Source of the DNA: Escherichia phage 308Ecol101PP
DNA length: 64,000 bases
Direction: 5' to 3' (one strand)
Sequence record: OR062945.1
The stretch's first letter is position 1. The number at the start of each line of letters is the position of its first letter. Under the pieces are notes generated by a model, which saw only the letters and a program-made list of their open reading frames with translations, ran no database searches and was not told the DNA's origin. The position numbers were made by a program, and so were the translations under genes. Of the stretch, positions 122 through 38,053 are shown one piece after another.

Positions 122-295
122 ATGACGAACGACCTGACCTCTGAAAATTTCGATAAAATCCGTAAAGGCAAAGCAGAAAGAATGAGACGTTTTAAAGAGT
201 CTTATGATAAAGCTAAAGCCGAAGGAACTATTACATACAAGCCCATTCGATTTAAAAGTTCAAATGAGCCTCTGTACGGTGTACTATGTGGATAG
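122..295 (+). CDS. small hypothetical protein (57 aa)
   Basis: ATG at 122 preceded by GAGAGGTGA; ends TAG 293-295; followed by terminator hairpin; below ORF-track size cutoff. Confidence 0.35.
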   Translation: MTNDLTSENFDKIRKGKAERMRRFKESYDKAKAEGTITYKPIRFKSSNEPLYGVLCG

Positions 296-318
296 GAACT
301 CTTCGGAGTTCCTTTTTT
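295..318 (+). terminator. intrinsic terminator, UUCG tetraloop hairpin plus T-run
   Basis: GGAACTC-TTCG-GAGTTCC followed by TTTTTT. Confidence 0.7.
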
Positions 319-364
319 GCTTTATAAACGGATGATAGAATGAATTAACTAATGAGGAAATAAT

Positions 365-1864: not shown

Positions 1865-3549
1865 AATCATTTAAATTAAATCGTGTTCGTTATCAAAACA
1901 TCATGTCGGTAGGTGGGAATCCTATTGACATCCAATTAGATAAAGTCCAAAAGACATTAATCACTGGTAAAAATGGCGGTGGTAAATCTACGATGTTAGA
2001 AGCCATTACTTTCGGACTTTTCGGTAAACCATTTCGTGATGTTAAGAAAGGGCAAATCATTAATAGCACGAACAAGAAAGAGCTCTTAGTTGAGCTTTGG
2101 ATGGAATTCGATGGTAAAAAATACTTCATTAAACGTGGCCAAAAGCCCAATATTTTCGAAATCTCCGTTGACGGTGTTCGTCTCGATGAATCTGCCAGCA
2201 GTCGTGACTTCCAAGAAGAATTTGAACGTAGCATCGGAATGTCATACGCGTCTTTTAAACAAATCGTTGTGCTTGGGACGGCAGGGTATACCCCTTTCAT
2301 GGCTCTTAGCACCCCTGCTCGTAGAAAACTTGTCGAAGACCTTTTAGAAGTCGGCACACTCGCCGAAATGGATAAAATCAATAAGTCTCAAGTTCGAGAA
2401 CTTAATTCTCAGGGACAAGTTCTTGATGCCAAGAAAGATGGTATTATCCAACAAATTAAGATTTATAATGAGAATATCGAACGTCAAAAGAAATTATCTG
2501 GTGATAATGTAGCGCGTCTACAGAATATGTATGACGACCTAGCCAAAGAAGCTCGTTCATTAAAAGCAGAAATCGAAGAAGCTAATGAGCGACTACTTAA
2601 TATCGTTCTTGATGAAGACCCTACTGAGGCATTCAACAAGATCGGACAAGAAGCATTCTTGATTAAATCTAAAATCGACTCATATAACAAAGTTATTAAG
2701 ATGTATCATGACGGTGGTACATGTCCTACTTGTGCATCGCAGTTGCACCAGGGTGATCCTATTGTCTCTAAGATTACCGATAAGCTTCACGAATGTAATC
2801 ACTCATTCGAGCAACTTACATGTCACAGAGATAATCTGAGTGTCCTAGTGGACGAATATAGAGCTAATGTTAAGACTAAACAGGACCTTGCATCTGATAT
2901 TCGTACCAAGAAACAAGCAATGATTGCCACTATTGATAAAGCTAAGAAAGTTAAAGCTGCAATAGAGCAAGCCTCAGCAGAATTTATCGACCATGCCGAT
3001 GAGATAGCTTTGCTTCAAAAAGAACTTGATAAAATCATTAAAACAAAATCAGATATCGTTCTTGAAAAATACCATCGTGGTATTATCACAGATATGTTAA
3101 AAGATTCTGGTATTAAAGGTGCTATCATTAAAAAATATGTGCCTCTGTTCAACAAGCAGATTAACCATTATCTTAAAATCATGGAAGCTGATTACGTGTT
3201 TTCTATTGATGAAGAATTCAATGAATCTATAAAATCACGTGGCCGTGAAGAGTTCAGTTATGCTTCATTTAGTCAAGGCGAAAAAGCGCGTATCGATATC
3301 GCATTGTTGTTTACATGGCGAGATATTGCTGAAAAGGTCTCTGGTGTTAGAATCAATACATTAATTATGGACGAAGTCATGGATTCCGCGACTGATTCTG
3401 AAGGTATTAAAGCTATTTCAACAATTCTTAACTCTCTAACCGATGCAAACGTGTTTATAATTAGTCACAGAGACCATGACCCACAAGCTTATGGACAACA
3501 TCTTCAAATGAGCAAAGTTGGACGATTTACTGTAATGACTGTTTCATAA
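1861..3549 (+). CDS. 46: gp46 recombination endonuclease subunit (Rad50/SbcC-like ATPase)
   Basis: 562 aa; Walker A GKNGGGKST near N-terminus, central coiled coil with CPTC zinc hook, C-terminal signature/Walker B (LIMDEV). Confidence 0.95.
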   Translation: MKSFKLNRVRYQNIMSVGGNPIDIQLDKVQKTLITGKNGGGKSTMLEAITFGLFGKPFRDVKKGQIINSTNKKELLVELWMEFDGKKYFIKRGQKPNIFEISVDGVRLDESASSRDFQEEFERSIGMSYASFKQIVVLGTAGYTPFMALSTPARRKLVEDLLEVGTLAEMDKINKSQVRELNSQGQVLDAKKDGIIQQIKIYNENIERQKKLSGDNVARLQNMYDDLAKEARSLKAEIEEANERLLNIVLDEDPTEAFNKIGQEAFLIKSKIDSYNKVIKMYHDGGTCPTCASQLHQGDPIVSKITDKLHECNHSFEQLTCHRDNLSVLVDEYRANVKTKQDLASDIRTKKQAMIATIDKAKKVKAAIEQASAEFIDHADEIALLQKELDKIIKTKSDIVLEKYHRGIITDMLKDSGIKGAIIKKYVPLFNKQINHYLKIMEADYVFSIDEEFNESIKSRGREEFSYASFSQGEKARIDIALLFTWRDIAEKVSGVRINTLIMDEVMDSATDSEGIKAISTILNSLTDANVFIISHRDHDPQAYGQHLQMSKVGRFTVMTVS

Positions 3550-5025: not shown

Positions 5026-5988
5026 ATGATTACTATCAATTCCAAAGAACACATTCTAGAACAGAAATATCGTCCTTCTTCCATTGACGAATGTATTCTG
5101 CCTGCGTATGACCATGAAACATTCAAGTCTTTAGTATCTAAAGGAAAACTTCCTCATATTATTTTGCACTCTCCTTCTCCTGGTACAGGTAAAACAACCG
5201 TAGCAAAAGCATTATGTAATGATATCAATGCCGAAATGATGTTCGTCAACGGTTCTGATTGTAAGATTGATTTTGTACGGGGACCGTTAACCGCATTCGC
5301 TCGTTCAGTCTCAATGGAAGGCAAGCCTAAAGTTATTGTTATTGATGAATTTGACCGTAGTGGCCTCGCCGAATCACAACGTCACCTTCGTACGTTTATG
5401 GAAGAATTCTCTAGTAACTGCTCTATTATTATTACTGCTAACAACATCGATGGAATTATTGAACCATTACGTAGTCGTTGTCGAGTTATCGAATTCGGAC
5501 GTCCAACCGAAGAAGATAAAATCTCGATGATGAAGAAAATGATTCATCGTATGGTTGAAATCTGTAAGAACGAAAATATCGAAATCGCTGATATGAAAGT
5601 TGTTGCAGCTCTGGTTAAAAAGAACTTCCCAGACTTTCGTCGAACAATTGGCCAATTAGACCAGTACTCGTCTAAAGGTGTTCTTGATGCGGGTATTTTG
5701 TCTATCGTAACTAATGACCGTGGCACAGTCTCTGATGTTATCGAAGCAATGAAGAACAAAGATATCAAACAGCTTCGTGCATTAGCTCCAAAATATGCCG
5801 CAGATTATTCATGGTTCATCGATAAATTAGTTTCAGAATGTTATGACCAAGTTGCACCTGGTAAAAGTATTATTTCGCTTTATGAAATTGCAGGCGAAAA
5901 CAATAAGTTTCATGGATTAGCAAGTAATATTGAATTACATGTTATGTATATGCTTCTTCAACTGACCTGCGAACTGACTTGGAAATAA
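5026..5988 (+). CDS. 44: gp44 clamp loader large subunit (AAA+)
   Basis: 320 aa; Walker [11 protein letters not shown], Walker [12 protein letters not shown] motif (LRSRCRV). Confidence 0.95.
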
Positions 5989-31568: not shown

Positions 31569-31598
31569 GTTTACAACCAAGGACGGTTGGAGTATAAT
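31569..31598 (+). promoter_or_regulatory. early promoter
   Basis: GTTTAC, 18-nt spacer, TATAAT. Confidence 0.6.
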
Positions 31599-31628
31599 CT
31601 TTCTATCTTAACCAAACGGGAAACAATT

Positions 31629-32123
31629 ATGAATATCAATACTACGTCTACTTACATCCTGAAAGACGAAAAACAAATCAACTGGTACGGTGCTTCAGTG
31701 CGAGCTTATGAAAAGTTTTGTGAAATTTTAGGTGCCACTCAAGGTAATAGTTTCACTATTGTTAACTTCATCAAACAAGTTGAAGGCCCTTGGTTATTCT
31801 TAGAAATTAAAAATTCATACGGTACAATTTCTACTACTGCCCTTCCGAGCACCGACTTTGAACTCTTGATTGAAGAAGCACCTGTTAAAGATGGTCTCCA
31901 CTTTGATATGGATATCGTTTGTATGTACGGTACTCTGATTAAGCCTATTGAGCCTACTGATTTATTGTGTAAATATGTTTCAATTCGACGCCCATTCGAT
32001 GGTCCAGTAAATGGATGGGTAACTGACCAGTGGATTGAAGATGGGGTTGAACTTCTGAACGTTGTTCATGCCGGTGATTTTAGTGTGGTTCCGCGTAGTG
32101 CTGTGGTTAATATCCTTAATTAA
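31629..32123 (+). CDS. hypothetical protein, member A of a tandem paralogue family (conserved C-terminal DQWIEDG module)
   Basis: 164 aa from ATG 31629 (ORF track begins at 31587 inside the promoter); C-terminus GWVTDQWIEDGVELLNVVHAGDFSVV. Confidence 0.5.
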   Translation: MNINTTSTYILKDEKQINWYGASVRAYEKFCEILGATQGNSFTIVNFIKQVEGPWLFLEIKNSYGTISTTALPSTDFELLIEEAPVKDGLHFDMDIVCMYGTLIKPIEPTDLLCKYVSIRRPFDGPVNGWVTDQWIEDGVELLNVVHAGDFSVVPRSAVVNILN

Positions 32124-32125
32124 TG

Positions 32126-32155
32126 TTGTACATCCAAGGATGGATGGAGTATAGT
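32126..32155 (+). promoter_or_regulatory. early promoter
   Basis: TTGTAC, 18-nt spacer, TATAGT; spacer resembles that of the promoter at 31569. Confidence 0.5.
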
Positions 32156-32183
32156 GAATTCAATTTAAACAAAGAGAGAAATT

Positions 32184-32714
32184 ATGATTACTATTGGTGA
32201 AATCCTTCGTGTATCTCCTGCTTCTCGTTCTAAAGCTGCAGGTCGTCTGGTTGAAGTAGCAGGACTTCGTACTAACGGCATGGGACGTGTTAAAGAAGTT
32301 AAAGTTCGAATCATCCCCAGTTTTGGCGGACAAGACGCCCAGTATGCTTACGTAAGTCCTAAATTCCTGGAAAAACATATACGAGTCCAATTTGCTTCAA
32401 GCGAAGAAGTTGCACCTGCACACTTTGCTTCTGTTGAAGAAGTTGAATCACGTGATGGATACGTATGTGAATCCACTGAGCCTAATGTACAGTTCAAATG
32501 GGCCCTTTGCAAAGGCGTTGAATTTATAACCGATAAAGAATTTGATTACATCGACGAATACGGTTATCCAAGCAAAACTGATATTATGTGTGGCTTCATT
32601 AGTGACCAATGGGTTGAAGATGGTGAAAAGTTATACAATATCGTATTCTTAGGTGACTTCCGAGTTGTTAAAGAATCTGAAATCACTCGCTATGTGTCTC
32701 CTCGTAAAGCTTAA
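32184..32714 (+). CDS. hypothetical protein, member B of tandem paralogue family
   Basis: 176 aa; N-terminus SPASRSKAAGRLVEV and C-terminus GFISDQWVEDGEKLYNIVFLGDFRVV shared with member C. Confidence 0.55.
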   Translation: MITIGEILRVSPASRSKAAGRLVEVAGLRTNGMGRVKEVKVRIIPSFGGQDAQYAYVSPKFLEKHIRVQFASSEEVAPAHFASVEEVESRDGYVCESTEPNVQFKWALCKGVEFITDKEFDYIDEYGYPSKTDIMCGFISDQWVEDGEKLYNIVFLGDFRVVKESEITRYVSPRKA

Positions 32715-32723
32715 GGAATTATT

Positions 32724-33143
32724 ATGAATATTGTAAATCTCTCTACAGGTGATTACGTATATGTATCTGTTGCTTCTCGCTCTAAAGTTGCCGGGAAGTT
32801 GGTTGAAGTTCTTTCTGTGAGTGATCCGGTTTTTGGTCGTAACCAAGTTAAAGTTCGTGACGCTGATGGCAACATTGGTTACGTTAAAAGCCAATTCATT
32901 GAACCGGAAGAAAAAGCGTTCAAATGGAAACTGTGCAGGTCTGTTTTAGTTGTAAAAGACCATGAATTTACTATTGCTGCTGCAACTGACGGGTCTCCAT
33001 GGTCAACGAATCAAGTTGCTGGTTTTATTTCGGACCAATGGGTAGAAGATGGTGTTAAGCTTTATAACATCGTTTTCGCTGGACAGTTCATGGTAGTTCC
33101 TGAGTTCCAAATCAAAAAATATTGTCCAGCATCTTTTGCATAA
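32724..33143 (+). CDS. hypothetical protein, member C of tandem paralogue family
   Basis: 139 aa; SVASRSKVAGKLVEV and GFISDQWVEDGVKLYNIVFAGQFMVV. Confidence 0.55.
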   Translation: MNIVNLSTGDYVYVSVASRSKVAGKLVEVLSVSDPVFGRNQVKVRDADGNIGYVKSQFIEPEEKAFKWKLCRSVLVVKDHEFTIAAATDGSPWSTNQVAGFISDQWVEDGVKLYNIVFAGQFMVVPEFQIKKYCPASFA

Positions 33144-33784: not shown

Positions 33785-34012
33785 ATGAAACGTCAAATCA
33801 TTAAAAACGTAACTACTGATTCAAACATCGATGAGTTTGAAGATGTTCTGTTTAATCCTGATTTAGTTGTTGTACAGAAAAACTGGACCGAATTTTTATG
33901 CTACACCGAAGTGGTTTACGTTTACGAAAAACTCGGTGATGAAATGCCTATCTATGGTATCTTCCGTGAAATCACTGAAAACGGTACAACTTATTGGAAG
34001 GAAACTTATTAA
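33785..34012 (+). CDS. hypothetical protein (75 aa)
   Basis: ATG 33785 after CAAGAGGAGAA; ORF track begins at 33740. Confidence 0.45.
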
Positions 34013-34422
34013 TGGCTAATAAATTCCGCGTTAACTCATGGTACCAATTTATAGATAAACGTACCCAAAAAGAGTTTATTAAAAACCACACTGATAATGG
34101 GATTTATGCACGACGTCTTGGCATGGAACCATTTAAAGTATTAGATGTTGACCATCTTGGCCGTCCTACTAAAATTGTGACATCTACTGGCACGGTTGGA
34201 TACGCAACAGGCGGTGATATTCTTGATGAAAACTTTATCTGGCTCTCTACTAGTGAAGCAGAGTTTTTTGATGAAGTGGGAAATCCATATCAAGCGTCCG
34301 AAGAGCAAGATTCTGGTGAACTTGACGAATTGACTGAATTTCCTGTGACGACGATTACTATCGAAAATAACGACCAGGCATGGTCTTTGTATCAAATGTT
34401 GAAAGCACATTTTAAGGAATAA
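34012..34422 (+). CDS. hypothetical protein (136 aa)
   Basis: TAATG-coupled start at 34012; ORF track begins at 33994. Confidence 0.5.
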
Positions 34423-34424
34423 TA

Positions 34425-34604
34425 ATGCCGTTATACGACTATAAATGTCAATCTGAAGATTGTGGCCATGAATATGAAAAAATTAAAAGGATTTCTGAAC
34501 GAGAAAACGATGTTTGTCCTGAATGTCATCGTCTGTCTACTCGTCGGGTTTCTGCTCCTAAACATGTGAACGGTGGTTTTTACGACTTACTTAAGAAGGG
34601 TTAA
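34425..34604 (+). CDS. small zinc-ribbon protein (59 aa), FmdB-like CxxC...CxxC
   Basis: MPLYDYKCQSEDCGHEY...DVCPECHR; SD TAAGGAATAATA; below ORF-track cutoff. Confidence 0.5.
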   Translation: MPLYDYKCQSEDCGHEYEKIKRISERENDVCPECHRLSTRRVSAPKHVNGGFYDLLKKG

Positions 34605-34606
34605 TT

Positions 34607-35029
34607 ATGGCTTTTAAAGGTTTTGAAGTTGGTAAGAAATATCGTATTATCAAAGGACAGGAAGATAATTTCTTGAGAATTCTTAATACGACTGGTAAAC
34701 GTCTTAACACTACTCTGCATACAGTTTTATTATCAAGAGATTTTATCGTAGAAGAGATGATTGGTTACGGTGTTTCAATGATTGCCGCTGAAACCGATGG
34801 ACCTGGACGTACAATCATTAGTATGCAAGGTGATATTCTGATTTATGGTGCAGAATTTAAATTCTTTGAAGAAGTTCCGGAACCAGATACAACTGTCGAT
34901 TTCAAAAAAGGCTCTATAGAATTTGTTGATGGTTCGGTGATCGTATCAGGCGATGTGGTCATTACAGTTAAAAGTGAACAAGGGCGTTTGGCTGCAATTG
35001 ATGCACTTCAGAAAATTAAATTTAAATAA
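34607..35029 (+). CDS. hypothetical protein (140 aa)
   Basis: ATG after AAGGGTTAATT; terminator immediately downstream. Confidence 0.5.
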   Translation: MAFKGFEVGKKYRIIKGQEDNFLRILNTTGKRLNTTLHTVLLSRDFIVEEMIGYGVSMIAAETDGPGRTIISMQGDILIYGAEFKFFEEVPEPDTTVDFKKGSIEFVDGSVIVSGDVVITVKSEQGRLAAIDALQKIKFK

Positions 35030-35047
35030 GGGCTTCGGCCCTTTTTG
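35030..35047 (+). terminator. UUCG hairpin terminator
   Basis: GGGC-TTCG-GCCC followed by TTTTTGCTTT. Confidence 0.6.
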
Positions 35048-35092
35048 CTTTAGATTTCGGATGATAGAATACCTTCATAACGAGGAGACAAC

Positions 35093-36910
35093 ATGATTAA
35101 AAATGAAATTAAGGTATTGTCAGATGTAGAACATATTAAGAAACGTAGTGGCATGTATATTGGTTCTTCGGCCAAAGAAGCCCACGAGCGTTTTTTGTTT
35201 GGTAAATATCAACAAGTTGAATATGTTCCTGGTCTGGTTAAATTAATCGATGAGATTATTGACAACTCGGTTGATGAAGCTATTCGTACATCATTTAAGT
35301 TTGCAAATAAAATCGATGTGCAAATTAAAAATAATCAAGTTTCGGTGGAAGATAACGGACGTGGTATTCCTCAAGGTTTAGTTACCGACCAAACAGGTGA
35401 ACAAATTCCTGGGCCTGTAGCAGCCTGGACTATTCCAAAGGCTGGTGGTAACTTTGGTGATGACTCTGAACGCAAGACTGGCGGTATGAACGGCGTCGGG
35501 AGTAGTTTAACTAATATCTTCTCTACGTTGTTTACAGGCATAACGTCAGATGGCGAAAATGAAATCACTGTTAACTGTTCAAACGGAATGGAAAACAAAT
35601 CGTGGTCTTCTAAGAAATCTAAAGGTAAAGGCACTAAAGTAATCTTCACTCCTGATTTCTCTTCGTTTGAAGAACATAATTTATCTCAAATTTATTTAGA
35701 TATTACTTTAGACCGACTTCAAACATTGGCAGTCGTTTATCCTGATATCAAGTTCACATTTAATGGTAAAAAGGTTGATGGTAATTTTAAACGATTTGCT
35801 AAACAATTTGGCGAAGATAACATCATTCAAGAAAATGATAAAGTCTCTATAGCATTCACAACATCACCAGATGGCTTCCGTCATTTAACTTATGTGAATA
35901 ACATCCATACTAAAAATGGTGGTCATCATGTTGAATGTGTAATGGATGATATCTGCGAACATCTTTTGCCGGGTATTAAAAAGAAATATAAGGGTATTGA
36001 AGTCACTAAAGCTCGTGTTAAAGAATGTCTCACAATGTTGATGTTTATTAGAGACATGAGCAACATGCGTTTTGATTCTCAGACTAAAGAACGTTTAACG
36101 TCAACGTATGGTGATATTCGTAATCATATCCAATTGGATGCTAAGAAAATTGCTCAGGCACTTCTTAAAAACGAAGCCTTGATTATGCCTATTGTTGAAG
36201 CAGCATTAGCTCGTAAATTGGCAGCAGAAAAGGCTGCAGAAACTAAAGCAGCTAAAAAGGCAACTAAAGCTAAGGTTCATAAGCATATTAAAGCTAACCA
36301 ATGTGGTAAAGATGCAGATACGACATTGTTCTTAACAGAAGGTGATTCGGCAATTGGTTATCTCATTGATGTTCGTGACCGTGAACTACACGGCGGATTC
36401 CCATTACGTGGTAAGGTGATGAATAGCTGGGGTATGTCATATGCTGATATGATGAAGAACAAAGAGCTCTTTGATATCTGTGCTATCACAGGTCTTATTC
36501 TTGGTGAAAAGGCAGAGAACACGAACTATCGTAATATTGCAATTATGACCGATGCCGATCATGACGGTCTTGGAAGTATTTATCCGGCTTTGCTTGCTTT
36601 CTTTAGTAATTGGCCTGAATTGTTTGAACAAGGACGTATTCGCTTTGTTAAAACGCCTGTAATTATTGCACAAATTGGCAAAACTCAAAAATGGTTTTAT
36701 ACTGTAGCTGAGTATGAAGAAGCTAAAGATACACTTCCTAAGCATAGTATTCGATACATCAAGGGATTAGGCTCCCTTGAAAAGTCAGAATATCGTGAAA
36801 TGATTCAGAACCCTGTGTACGACGTAGTTAAACTTCCTGAAAATTGGAAAGAACTCTTTGAAATGTTGTTGGGTGATGATTCAGAACTTCGTAAAGAATG
36901 GATGTCCTAA
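35093..36910 (+). CDS. 39: gp39 DNA topoisomerase II large subunit (GyrB-like ATPase plus TOPRIM), unsplit form
   Basis: 605 aa; GHKL ATPase motifs (IDEIIDNSVDEA, EDNGRGIP), TOPRIM (LTEGDSA, DADHDG); one continuous ORF. Confidence 0.9.
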   Translation: MIKNEIKVLSDVEHIKKRSGMYIGSSAKEAHERFLFGKYQQVEYVPGLVKLIDEIIDNSVDEAIRTSFKFANKIDVQIKNNQVSVEDNGRGIPQGLVTDQTGEQIPGPVAAWTIPKAGGNFGDDSERKTGGMNGVGSSLTNIFSTLFTGITSDGENEITVNCSNGMENKSWSSKKSKGKGTKVIFTPDFSSFEEHNLSQIYLDITLDRLQTLAVVYPDIKFTFNGKKVDGNFKRFAKQFGEDNIIQENDKVSIAFTTSPDGFRHLTYVNNIHTKNGGHHVECVMDDICEHLLPGIKKKYKGIEVTKARVKECLTMLMFIRDMSNMRFDSQTKERLTSTYGDIRNHIQLDAKKIAQALLKNEALIMPIVEAALARKLAAEKAAETKAAKKATKAKVHKHIKANQCGKDADTTLFLTEGDSAIGYLIDVRDRELHGGFPLRGKVMNSWGMSYADMMKNKELFDICAITGLILGEKAENTNYRNIAIMTDADHDGLGSIYPALLAFFSNWPELFEQGRIRFVKTPVIIAQIGKTQKWFYTVAEYEEAKDTLPKHSIRYIKGLGSLEKSEYREMIQNPVYDVVKLPENWKELFEMLLGDDSELRKEWMS

Positions 36911-36952: not shown

Positions 36953-38053
36953 ATGAAAGTTATGTTTATCCCATCTCGCGCAGTCCCATTTAATCCTGAC
37001 CGTGTACAAGGTGGTCTTGAAGCAGTACATTTAAATGTGTTGAAATATCTTGTGTCCATCGGTGCTGATATTGATTATATCGGCTTTGATAATGACACGT
37101 TTGGTGACTGGAAAGTTACACACCATCCTGTTGGTCATCTGACTAAATTTAGTCTAGGTATGAGTTATACTATGGCTCGTAAGATTGTTGAACTAGCCGG
37201 CATCCATGAATACGATTTTGTTGTTACTATGGAACCGACTAAACTAACCGTTCAGGCAATTAAAGACGCAGGTCTCTCTAAAGTTCATAAGAATTTTATG
37301 GCAACACCATTTGAACCGGTATCTCGTGGCATTGTTCAAATTTGGGACCAGACTATTCAAATTCATAAGAATGGTGGTAAGAGTTATGCTCCTACTAAAG
37401 CCTTCCGTGAATTTGAACGCAAATATTGTTATATGACTTCAGGTCTGACTGACAAAATTGATTATGATTATTGGCGAGCAAATCCGTTGTTTGAAGCCGA
37501 AGATTATCCGGTTATTTGTTTGAATGAGAAACCTGAAGTTCTTCCGGCGACTGATCTGATTATTAGTGCACAACGTTATGACACTAAAATGCGTCGTACT
37601 GATGTTGCTCTTGAAGCGATTAAAGCACTAGGCGAAAATGGTGTAGGATACTGTCCAAGCAAATGGGCACCACCAGCTAAATATCCTGTTATTATTGATG
37701 CTCCACACAGTGAAATCATGGAACGTCTTAAAACAGCTAAAGCGCTTATTAATACGTGTCCTGACACAGGTACGGTAGAGAATAGTTCTATTGAAGCCAT
37801 CTCTAAAGGTGTCCCTGTAATCCAGTTAGTTTTTAAGGATTATCCTCATGCGACATTCGAATACGACCCAGATACTGTGCGTGTAGAAATTGATTCCTCT
37901 ACTCCTAAGAAAGAAGTAGTTGCGCTTTACACAAAAGCTGTATTAGAATTCACTGACACATACGAAGCTCGAGTTAAACGTGCTGAAGCAGTATGGAAGA
38001 AGTATAACCGAGATGCAGTTGTTGCGATGTGGGATAAAATCTTCACAGCGTAA
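36953..38053 (+). CDS. GT-B fold glycosyltransferase (GT4-like), candidate DNA hydroxymethylcytosine glycosyl (pentosyl) transferase
   Basis: 366 aa; C-terminal GT-B donor-binding pattern CPDTGTVENSSIEAISKGVPVI (E-x7-E); located between gene 39 and rIIA. Confidence 0.6.
   Translation: MKVMFIPSRAVPFNPDRVQGGLEAVHLNVLKYLVSIGADIDYIGFDNDTFGDWKVTHHPVGHLTKFSLGMSYTMARKIVELAGIHEYDFVVTMEPTKLTVQAIKDAGLSKVHKNFMATPFEPVSRGIVQIWDQTIQIHKNGGKSYAPTKAFREFERKYCYMTSGLTDKIDYDYWRANPLFEAEDYPVICLNEKPEVLPATDLIISAQRYDTKMRRTDVALEAIKALGENGVGYCPSKWAPPAKYPVIIDAPHSEIMERLKTAKALINTCPDTGTVENSSIEAISKGVPVIQLVFKDYPHATFEYDPDTVRVEIDSSTPKKEVVALYTKAVLEFTDTYEARVKRAEAVWKKYNRDAVVAMWDKIFTA

Follow-up and report, generated by a model that had tools for sequence, protein, structure and literature searches.

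The window analysed here is a stretch of 64,000 nucleotides from Escherichia phage 308Ecol101PP (sequence record OR062945.1), an RB69-like phage of the T4 type (Mosigvirus, Straboviridae). In it, dexA is followed by MotB-like genes, cef, a goF-like gene, a 59-aa gene, a 140-aa gene, gene 39, a 366-aa gene, rIIA.1 and rIIA. The 59-aa gene, which from its sequence we assign to gene 39.2 (nwgI) of T4 and RB69, occupies positions 34425..34604, opens with ATG and closes with TAA; like the other window features given below, unless a strand is named, it lies on the plus strand. Its translation, MPLYDYKCQSEDCGHEYEKIKRISERENDVCPECHRLSTRRVSAPKHVNGGFYDLLKKG, is a protein of 6.9 kDa with one zinc-ribbon domain, a pI of 7.7 and a net charge of +0.7. 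Upstream lie the early-cluster gene cef (33785..34012) and, in the same early cluster, the goF-like gene (34012..34422), the counterpart of RB69 goF. Within the 3' end of the latter the sequence reads TAAGGA (34413..34418), a Shine-Dalgarno sequence with a spacing of 7 nt from its last G to the ATG at 34425. The stop codon of the goF-like gene (34420-34422, TAATAATG) comes 2 nt before the start of 39.2, and the 140-aa gene, a member of phrog_622 (34607..35029), starts at 34607 (TAATTATG), 2 nt after the stop of 39.2. Gaps this short on both sides suggest that translation of 39.2 is coupled to that of its neighbours.

Between the 140-aa gene and gene 39 lies a terminator-like hairpin (AAGGGCTTCGGCCCTT, 35028..35043) followed by a T-run (TTTTG) that extends to 35048. 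An equivalent hairpin is present ahead of gene 39 in T4, and the hairpin is the probable end of a cef-goF-39.2-ORF140 unit. Directly after it, at 35044..35070, a pattern match marks a putative MotA-box middle promoter (TTTGCTTTA-N12-TAGAAT) serving gene 39. The pattern WWTGCTTYA-N12-TANNNT has five exact matches in the window (at 3009, 10520, 15700, 35044 and 59198), all five of them on the plus strand, where 0.23 would be expected by chance. Given that gene 39, encoding the large subunit of topoisomerase II (35093..36910, 605 aa), has a promoter of its own, 39.2 belongs to the upstream cluster and not strictly to a topoisomerase operon. An earlier note, made from the letters of this DNA, had placed the ORF just upstream of that operon; as an approximate location this holds, but the 140-aa ORF, the terminator-like hairpin and the MotA-box promoter intervene.

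A question arises, is so short a reading frame a gene at all? The DNA is A+T-rich, and 8 kb of it contain 81 ORFs of 30 aa or longer, so that length alone is no evidence for a gene. We find that the 59-aa protein scores 49.3 bits against Pfam PF09723 (Zn_ribbon_8; gathering cut-off 34.4, E 5e-13) and 48 bits against NCBIfam TIGR02605 (FmdB family zinc ribbon protein; cut-off 31.3). By tblastn, homologs are found in 955 phage records, with coverage of at least 80% in 912 of them. Among 21 distinct DNA versions of the gene, variable sites number 12, 11 and 39 at codon positions 1, 2 and 3, respectively, and the median dN/dS is 0.04 (Nei-Gojobori, 141 pairs). The gene is under purifying selection and is genuine. 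The earlier note had described an ORF with a good Shine-Dalgarno sequence, a C-x4-C ... C-x2-C pattern and a zinc ribbon of the FmdB type, and all of this is borne out, by the TAAGGA at 7 nt, the family cut-offs passed, the number of records, the selection on the gene, the four cysteines C8, C13, C31 and C34, and a structural model with four short strands that is described below. An overlapping ORF of 44 aa on the minus strand (34431..34565) was rejected because the substitutions track the codons of the plus frame. PADLOC defence models returned nothing meaningful for the ORF and both its neighbours, and Rfam at gathering thresholds gave zero matches in the whole window.

The gene is true but already known. 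Over 1.5 kb around the ORF the window is 97-98% identical to Mosigvirus phages, for example LH01, JS09 and O157 typing phages 3 and 6. The 59-aa protein is 100% identical to RB69p006 of RB69 and to gp132 of O157 typing phage 3 (O157tp3); the window gene differs from the RB69 gene by four nucleotides, all synonymous. Gene 39.2 of RefSeq T4 is found at the same site, between goF and gene 39, with RB69p006 as its RB69 counterpart, and identity to the protein of T4 GT7 is 82.5% over 57 aligned residues. Compared with Gp39.2/NwgI of T4 and RB69, the window protein has the same ligands (C-x4-C...C-x2-C) and the same C-terminal NGGFYDLLK, its gene likewise lies between goF and gene 39, and nothing of substance differs; the 45 aa of the RefSeq T4 protein are due to a difference of 1 nt. 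On sequence and position, then, we identify the 59-aa gene as the ortholog of T4/RB69 gene 39.2 (nwgI). Moonvirus (Moon), Krischvirus (ECD7, where it is labelled gp39.2) and Pseudotevenvirus (Miller) also have 39.2 between dexA and gene 39, and T4, RB69, Moon, ECD7 and Miller all have the order cef-goF-39.2-ORF140-gene 39, the same or reduced. In Muldoon (Muldoonvirus) 39.2 comes just after dexA and a MazG-like gene, in an examined stretch that excludes gene 39. The description of the ORF as unannotated is therefore wrong, since RB69 (RB69p006) and O157 typing phage 3 both have an annotation for the identical gene, as most of the 955 phage records have for its homologs. In relatives it goes by the names "FmdB-like transcriptional regulator", "zinc ribbon domain protein", "transcriptional regulator" and "hypothetical protein", the first being the label of phrog_1076 and of many GenBank records.

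The copy of 39.2 in the T4 reference deserves attention of its own. In RefSeq T4 (NC_000866, 5640..5839) the gene is annotated as 45 aa, and downstream of this ORF the other frame reads on through PKHGNNGFYDLLKG to a stop. Deleting one C yields a protein of 58 aa, and the single nucleotide behind the truncation is seen by setting GCTTCCTAAG against GCTCCTAAA. T4 GT7 (KJ477686) carries at 151..327 an intact 58-aa ORF, MPLYDYKCQSKDCAKEYEKIKKISERDTDVCPDCHRLAVRLVSAPKHVNGGFYDLLKG, without annotation, and its length agrees with the "58-amino acid peptide" of Georgopoulos. The RefSeq T4 and GT7 translations differ at four residues (G25/E, G29/D, G47/V, N49/G). In Table S2 of PMC9697503 the 39.2 transcript of T4 falls in the early class, and Gp39.2 was undetected by mass spectrometry (class "NA"). 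For the proteomic search the 45-aa RefSeq form may well have served as the reference; from it trypsin would release two peptides of more than six residues, and the presence of only two usable peptides helps explain the absent signal. Predicted tryptic peptides of the intact 59-aa sequence are CQSEDCGHEYEK, ENDVCPECHR and HVNGGFYDLLK. Thus, with a truncated RefSeq entry and a missing annotation in GT7, proteomic and comparative work can overlook 39.2. Between 39.2 and 39.1 on the minus strand of NC_000866 (about 5585..5660) there is also a short, signal-peptide-like ORF, MKYISRSIAALVLAVSLINSTDAD followed by a stop, that continues into the annotated 39.1 in a different frame; the T4 reference may contain a second frameshift at 39.2/39.1.

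The protein opens with MPLYDYKC, which fits the MPxYxYxC start of the family at the initiator methionine. In an alignment of 59 family sequences M1, Y4 and C8 are invariant, P2 and Y6 are at least 90% conserved, C34 is invariant and C31 nearly so. The first zinc knuckle of the window protein, C8-x4-C13 (CQSEDC, 34446..34463), is followed after 17 residues by the second, C31-x2-C34 (CPEC, 34515..34526). The four ligands are thus retained, but the strict family spacing of two CxxC motifs 17 residues apart is not: the C-x4-C spacing of the first knuckle is a peculiarity of the T4/RB69 lineage (4 of the 59 members) and most members have C-x2-C there. The commonest form combines C-x2-C in knuckle 1 with C-x2-C in knuckle 2 (22/59). 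ECD7 and Muldoon have C-x2-H followed by C-x2-C (5/59), Moon has C-x-C followed by C-x4-C (3/59), and Miller has C-x2-C followed by C-x-C (8/59). Despite this varying spacing two ligands per knuckle are kept in 58 of the 59 members, the pattern that metal binding predicts; by analogy with its family, the window protein would bind zinc through its four cysteines. Beyond the ribbon lies the motif A44-P45-K-H-V-N-G-G-F-Y-D54 (34554..34586), which is conserved across genera of Straboviridae. This tail motif, AP..V.GGFYD, is not phage-specific; cellular proteins of the FmdB/Ruc type carry AP...FKGSGFY.

An AlphaFold2 model built on the 59-sequence alignment has a mean pLDDT of 77.7, with predicted strands at residues 3-8, 16-20, 28-30 and 37-41 and lower confidence over residues 43-59 (pLDDT 63-68). 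The predicted four-strand pattern is compatible with two zinc knuckles. A sequence search of the PDB gave as its best match only ribosomal protein bL31, at a non-significant E of 0.3-0.5, and Foldseek against the PDB gave a best E of 0.24, likewise not significant, with generic zinc ribbons (RbpA, Rpo12/RPB12, the MCM N-domain). We also considered the tail GGFYDLL as a mimic of the GroES mobile loop (GGIVL) and set this aside; G-[FWY]-Y is found in cellular FmdB/Ruc proteins as well (KGSGFY) and is therefore ancestral to the domain, not mimicry peculiar to the phages. The motif is a possible contact surface.

What, then, does the product of 39.2 do? Folding of the T4 major capsid protein needs GroEL and Gp31. 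In Genetics in 2012, Ang and Georgopoulos reportedly characterised Gp39.2/NwgI, with a selection that is said to have first recovered 39.2 of RB69. Homologs from T4, RB43 and RB49 reportedly behaved alike, overproduction of Gp39.2 is said to be lethal, and mutants of groEL and groES were reportedly suppressed in an allele-specific manner. Gp31 of T4, CocO of RB49 and host GroES are generally known to share with Gp39.2 both the target, GroEL, and the end, which is the folding of phage proteins. Gp31 and GroES, however, are heptameric lids of β-barrel subunits of about 10 kDa, unrelated to Gp39.2 in sequence and fold; Gp39.2, in contrast, is a zinc ribbon said to bias the conformational equilibrium of GroEL. 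Papers that cite the 2012 work credit Gp39.2 with moving host GroEL into its open form, competent for the co-chaperonin, and report that T4 requires it to grow on some groEL mutants. In an account by one of the discoverers, Gp39.2 is a 58-aa peptide that shifts GroEL toward an open state competent for GroES binding, and a T4 39.2 deletion mutant is completely blocked on specific groEL mutant hosts (PMC5153855). The functional data on Gp39.2/NwgI all come from one laboratory. The literature searched yielded no structure of Gp39.2 and no direct binding site.

Since the window protein is identical to Gp39.2 of RB69, we take the GroEL role as the best explanation of the locus, and it is highly probable that the window ORF is the 39.2 ortholog and that its product modulates host GroEL. 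The RB69-type protein would then act as Gp39.2 of T4 does, and its conserved tail would contribute to the GroEL interaction. The gene would be transcribed early, probably within the cef-goF-39.2-ORF140 cluster, and translated from its own Shine-Dalgarno sequence. Its product would act on GroEL to favour the open conformation, which binds the co-chaperonin, be it host GroES or phage Gp31. Given that the major capsid protein depends on GroEL and Gp31, Gp39.2 would keep its folding going in hosts whose GroEL is suboptimal, and would be dispensable on ordinary laboratory hosts.

A second line of evidence connects the family to chaperones. Rv0991c of Mycobacterium tuberculosis is annotated as "FmdB family transcriptional regulator". 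It has been named Ruc and binds one zinc via C8, C11, C29 and C32 (Becker et al., mBio 2020, PMC7448276); the 1:1 stoichiometry was shown by PAR assay and ICP-MS. According to the same paper, oxidation turns Ruc into a holdase, and Ruc promotes refolding by DnaK/DnaJ/GrpE, interacts with DnaK and shares its regulation with hsp60 and hsp70 genes. Homologs of Ruc adjoin dnaK, grpE, clpB and hrcA, as well as groES/groEL in certain phyla. A construct of residues 1-49 (RucNterm) loses holdase activity, and the disordered hydrophilic C-terminus of Ruc homologs measures 7-61 residues (PMC7448276). The primers published for Ruc encode MPTYSYE(C)TQ(C)ANRFDVV, DDALTT(C)ER(C)SGRLRKLF and AVGVVFKG, which fit the pattern of the window protein (PMC7448276). 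We compared a profile of 27 phage 39.2-type proteins with one of 7 Ruc-like cellular proteins, which have Cys 8, 11, 29 and 32, the FKGSGFY motif and Ser-rich tails. The hhalign probability is 99.2%, with E 7.4e-20 over 57 columns. The sequences thus indicate clear homology between the phage 39.2 family and the N-terminal zinc-ribbon domain of Ruc. Both have the MPxYxYxC start, 17 residues between the knuckles and a later G-F-Y motif, and both are tied to chaperone systems, Ruc to DnaK and to oxidation, Gp39.2 to GroEL. Ruc, in contrast, uses C-x2-C for each knuckle and ends in a Ser-rich, disordered stretch of some 60 residues, which holdase activity requires, whereas the window protein extends only about 9 residues (GFYDLLKKG) past the RucNterm cut point. 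This length is at the lower limit of that reported for homologs, and the conserved GFY is counted in it. In form the phage protein resembles the N-domain of Ruc with hardly any tail. Phage are absent from the Ruc paper (PMC7448276), and no paper that treats both Rv0991c and bacteriophage T4 was found in the literature searched.

One rival reading is that the ORF arose by chance or is a decaying, functionless remnant, as might be read from its shortness, the lack of a T4 product in proteomics and the 45-aa RefSeq copy. The T4 GT7 copy is intact, however, homologs are spread over several genera at a conserved position, the third-position bias is strong and dN/dS is very low, and a deletion phenotype is published. 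This reading has practically no chance of being right; the conservation data refute it. For a regulatory role, the earlier note had taken the FmdB-like ribbon as the sign of a small nucleic-acid-binding or regulatory protein, and phrog_1076 and many GenBank records carry the regulator name. Zinc ribbons are indeed common in nucleic-acid-binding proteins, and the nominal top Foldseek matches, RbpA and Rpo12/RPB12, are ribbons associated with RNA polymerase. Yet those matches are not significant (E >0.2), the protein is nearly neutral, it lacks a DNA-binding domain, the zinc-ribbon model being the only one to pass its threshold, and the two studied members of the family both act on folding. To our knowledge the regulatory name of FmdB stems from an untested suggestion, so that it denotes a name and not a tested function. 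FmdB itself, from Methylophilus methylotrophus, gives its name to the family (PF09723, TIGR02605) whose cut-offs the window protein exceeds, although the first knuckle is C-x2-C in the family and C-x4-C in the window protein. Experimental support for nucleic-acid binding or regulation by the phage protein of this family was not found in the literature searched. We consider the regulatory role very unlikely; the proposal rests on the FmdB name, and the published role of Gp39.2 is modulation of GroEL, that of Ruc a chaperone's.

Another view is that the phage protein is, like Ruc, a stand-alone holdase activated by redox change, in which oxidation frees the zinc and unfolded phage or host proteins are passed on to DnaK or GroEL. 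Homology to Ruc is clear over the whole zinc-ribbon domain, G-[FWY]-Y included. However, the reported allele-specific suppression of groEL and groES mutants fits a direct effect on GroEL better, and some phage orthologs have His in place of Cys (C-x2-H). That Ruc binds zinc 1:1 and is active on oxidation, and that genes of its family adjoin chaperone genes, including groES/groEL in some phyla, would speak for such a holdase (PMC7448276), but Ruc needs its long disordered C-terminus, and the window protein ends about 9 residues beyond the equivalent point. The near absence of a tail argues against a holdase and fits action on GroEL. We regard the holdase reading as improbable, if a little less so than the regulatory one, and keep modulation of GroEL as the preferred reading.

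Within the FmdB family we found experimental work on Gp39.2 and Ruc only, and both act on protein folding, neither as a regulator. It is conceivable, although we hold it with considerable reserve, that FmdB/Zn_ribbon_8 is a module of chaperone systems, that the Gp39.2 family is a tail-less viral offshoot of Ruc, and that the conserved core (MPxYxYxC...CxxC...G-F-Y) docks on Hsp60 or Hsp70 machines or tunes them allosterically. If so, the label "FmdB-like transcriptional regulator" would be wrong for many phage records, as for many genomes of bacteria, and GroEL might be a target of bacterial Ruc proteins too. Regardless, no experimental basis was found for that label, which hides the published GroEL role of Gp39.2. 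The homology of Gp39.2 with Ruc connects two bodies of literature that had stood apart, and suggests a common folding role for a very widespread family of small bacterial proteins. Together with the misleading annotation and the truncated T4 reference entry, it is a by-product of the analysis of a gene that was already on record.

Several further observations concern relatives of the 39.2 protein and the surroundings of the gene. A partial "FmdB family zinc ribbon protein [Enterococcus faecalis]" of 38 aa, from a contig of 336 bp, is 79% identical to the phage protein and probably represents T4-like phage DNA inside a bacterial assembly. The 140-aa and goF-like proteins both match phrog_622 (E 2.9e-19 and 3.8e-38, respectively), and a direct BLASTP comparison of the two shows hardly any similarity (E 0.036); at the position of the 140-aa gene T4 has 39.1, an unrelated protein of 65 aa. 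Upstream, at 31587..33143, three MotB-like ORFs in tandem (178, 176 and 139 aa) have in common the C-terminal motif ..DQW(V/I)EDG..L(Y/L)N(I/V)V..G.F.VV and, from their sequences, look like tandem paralogs. Gene 39 is undivided here, with its 605 aa, and in T4 it is split into 39 and 60 with a translational bypass of 50 nt; the gene 39 region of the window contains no mobA remnant and no bypass element. After gene 39, at 36953..38053, comes the 366-aa gene, of the RB69 ORF003c type (phrog_8302), whose product has zero matches in Pfam and is nearly identical to structures 9iqz/9ir0, [quoted passage not shown] (E 4.7e-251). This gene occupies the site of mobA, 60.1 and 60 in T4. The DNA modification of RB69 is arabinosyl-hydroxymethylcytosine, and because RB69 DNA carries it, the 366-aa product may be the transferase for this modification.
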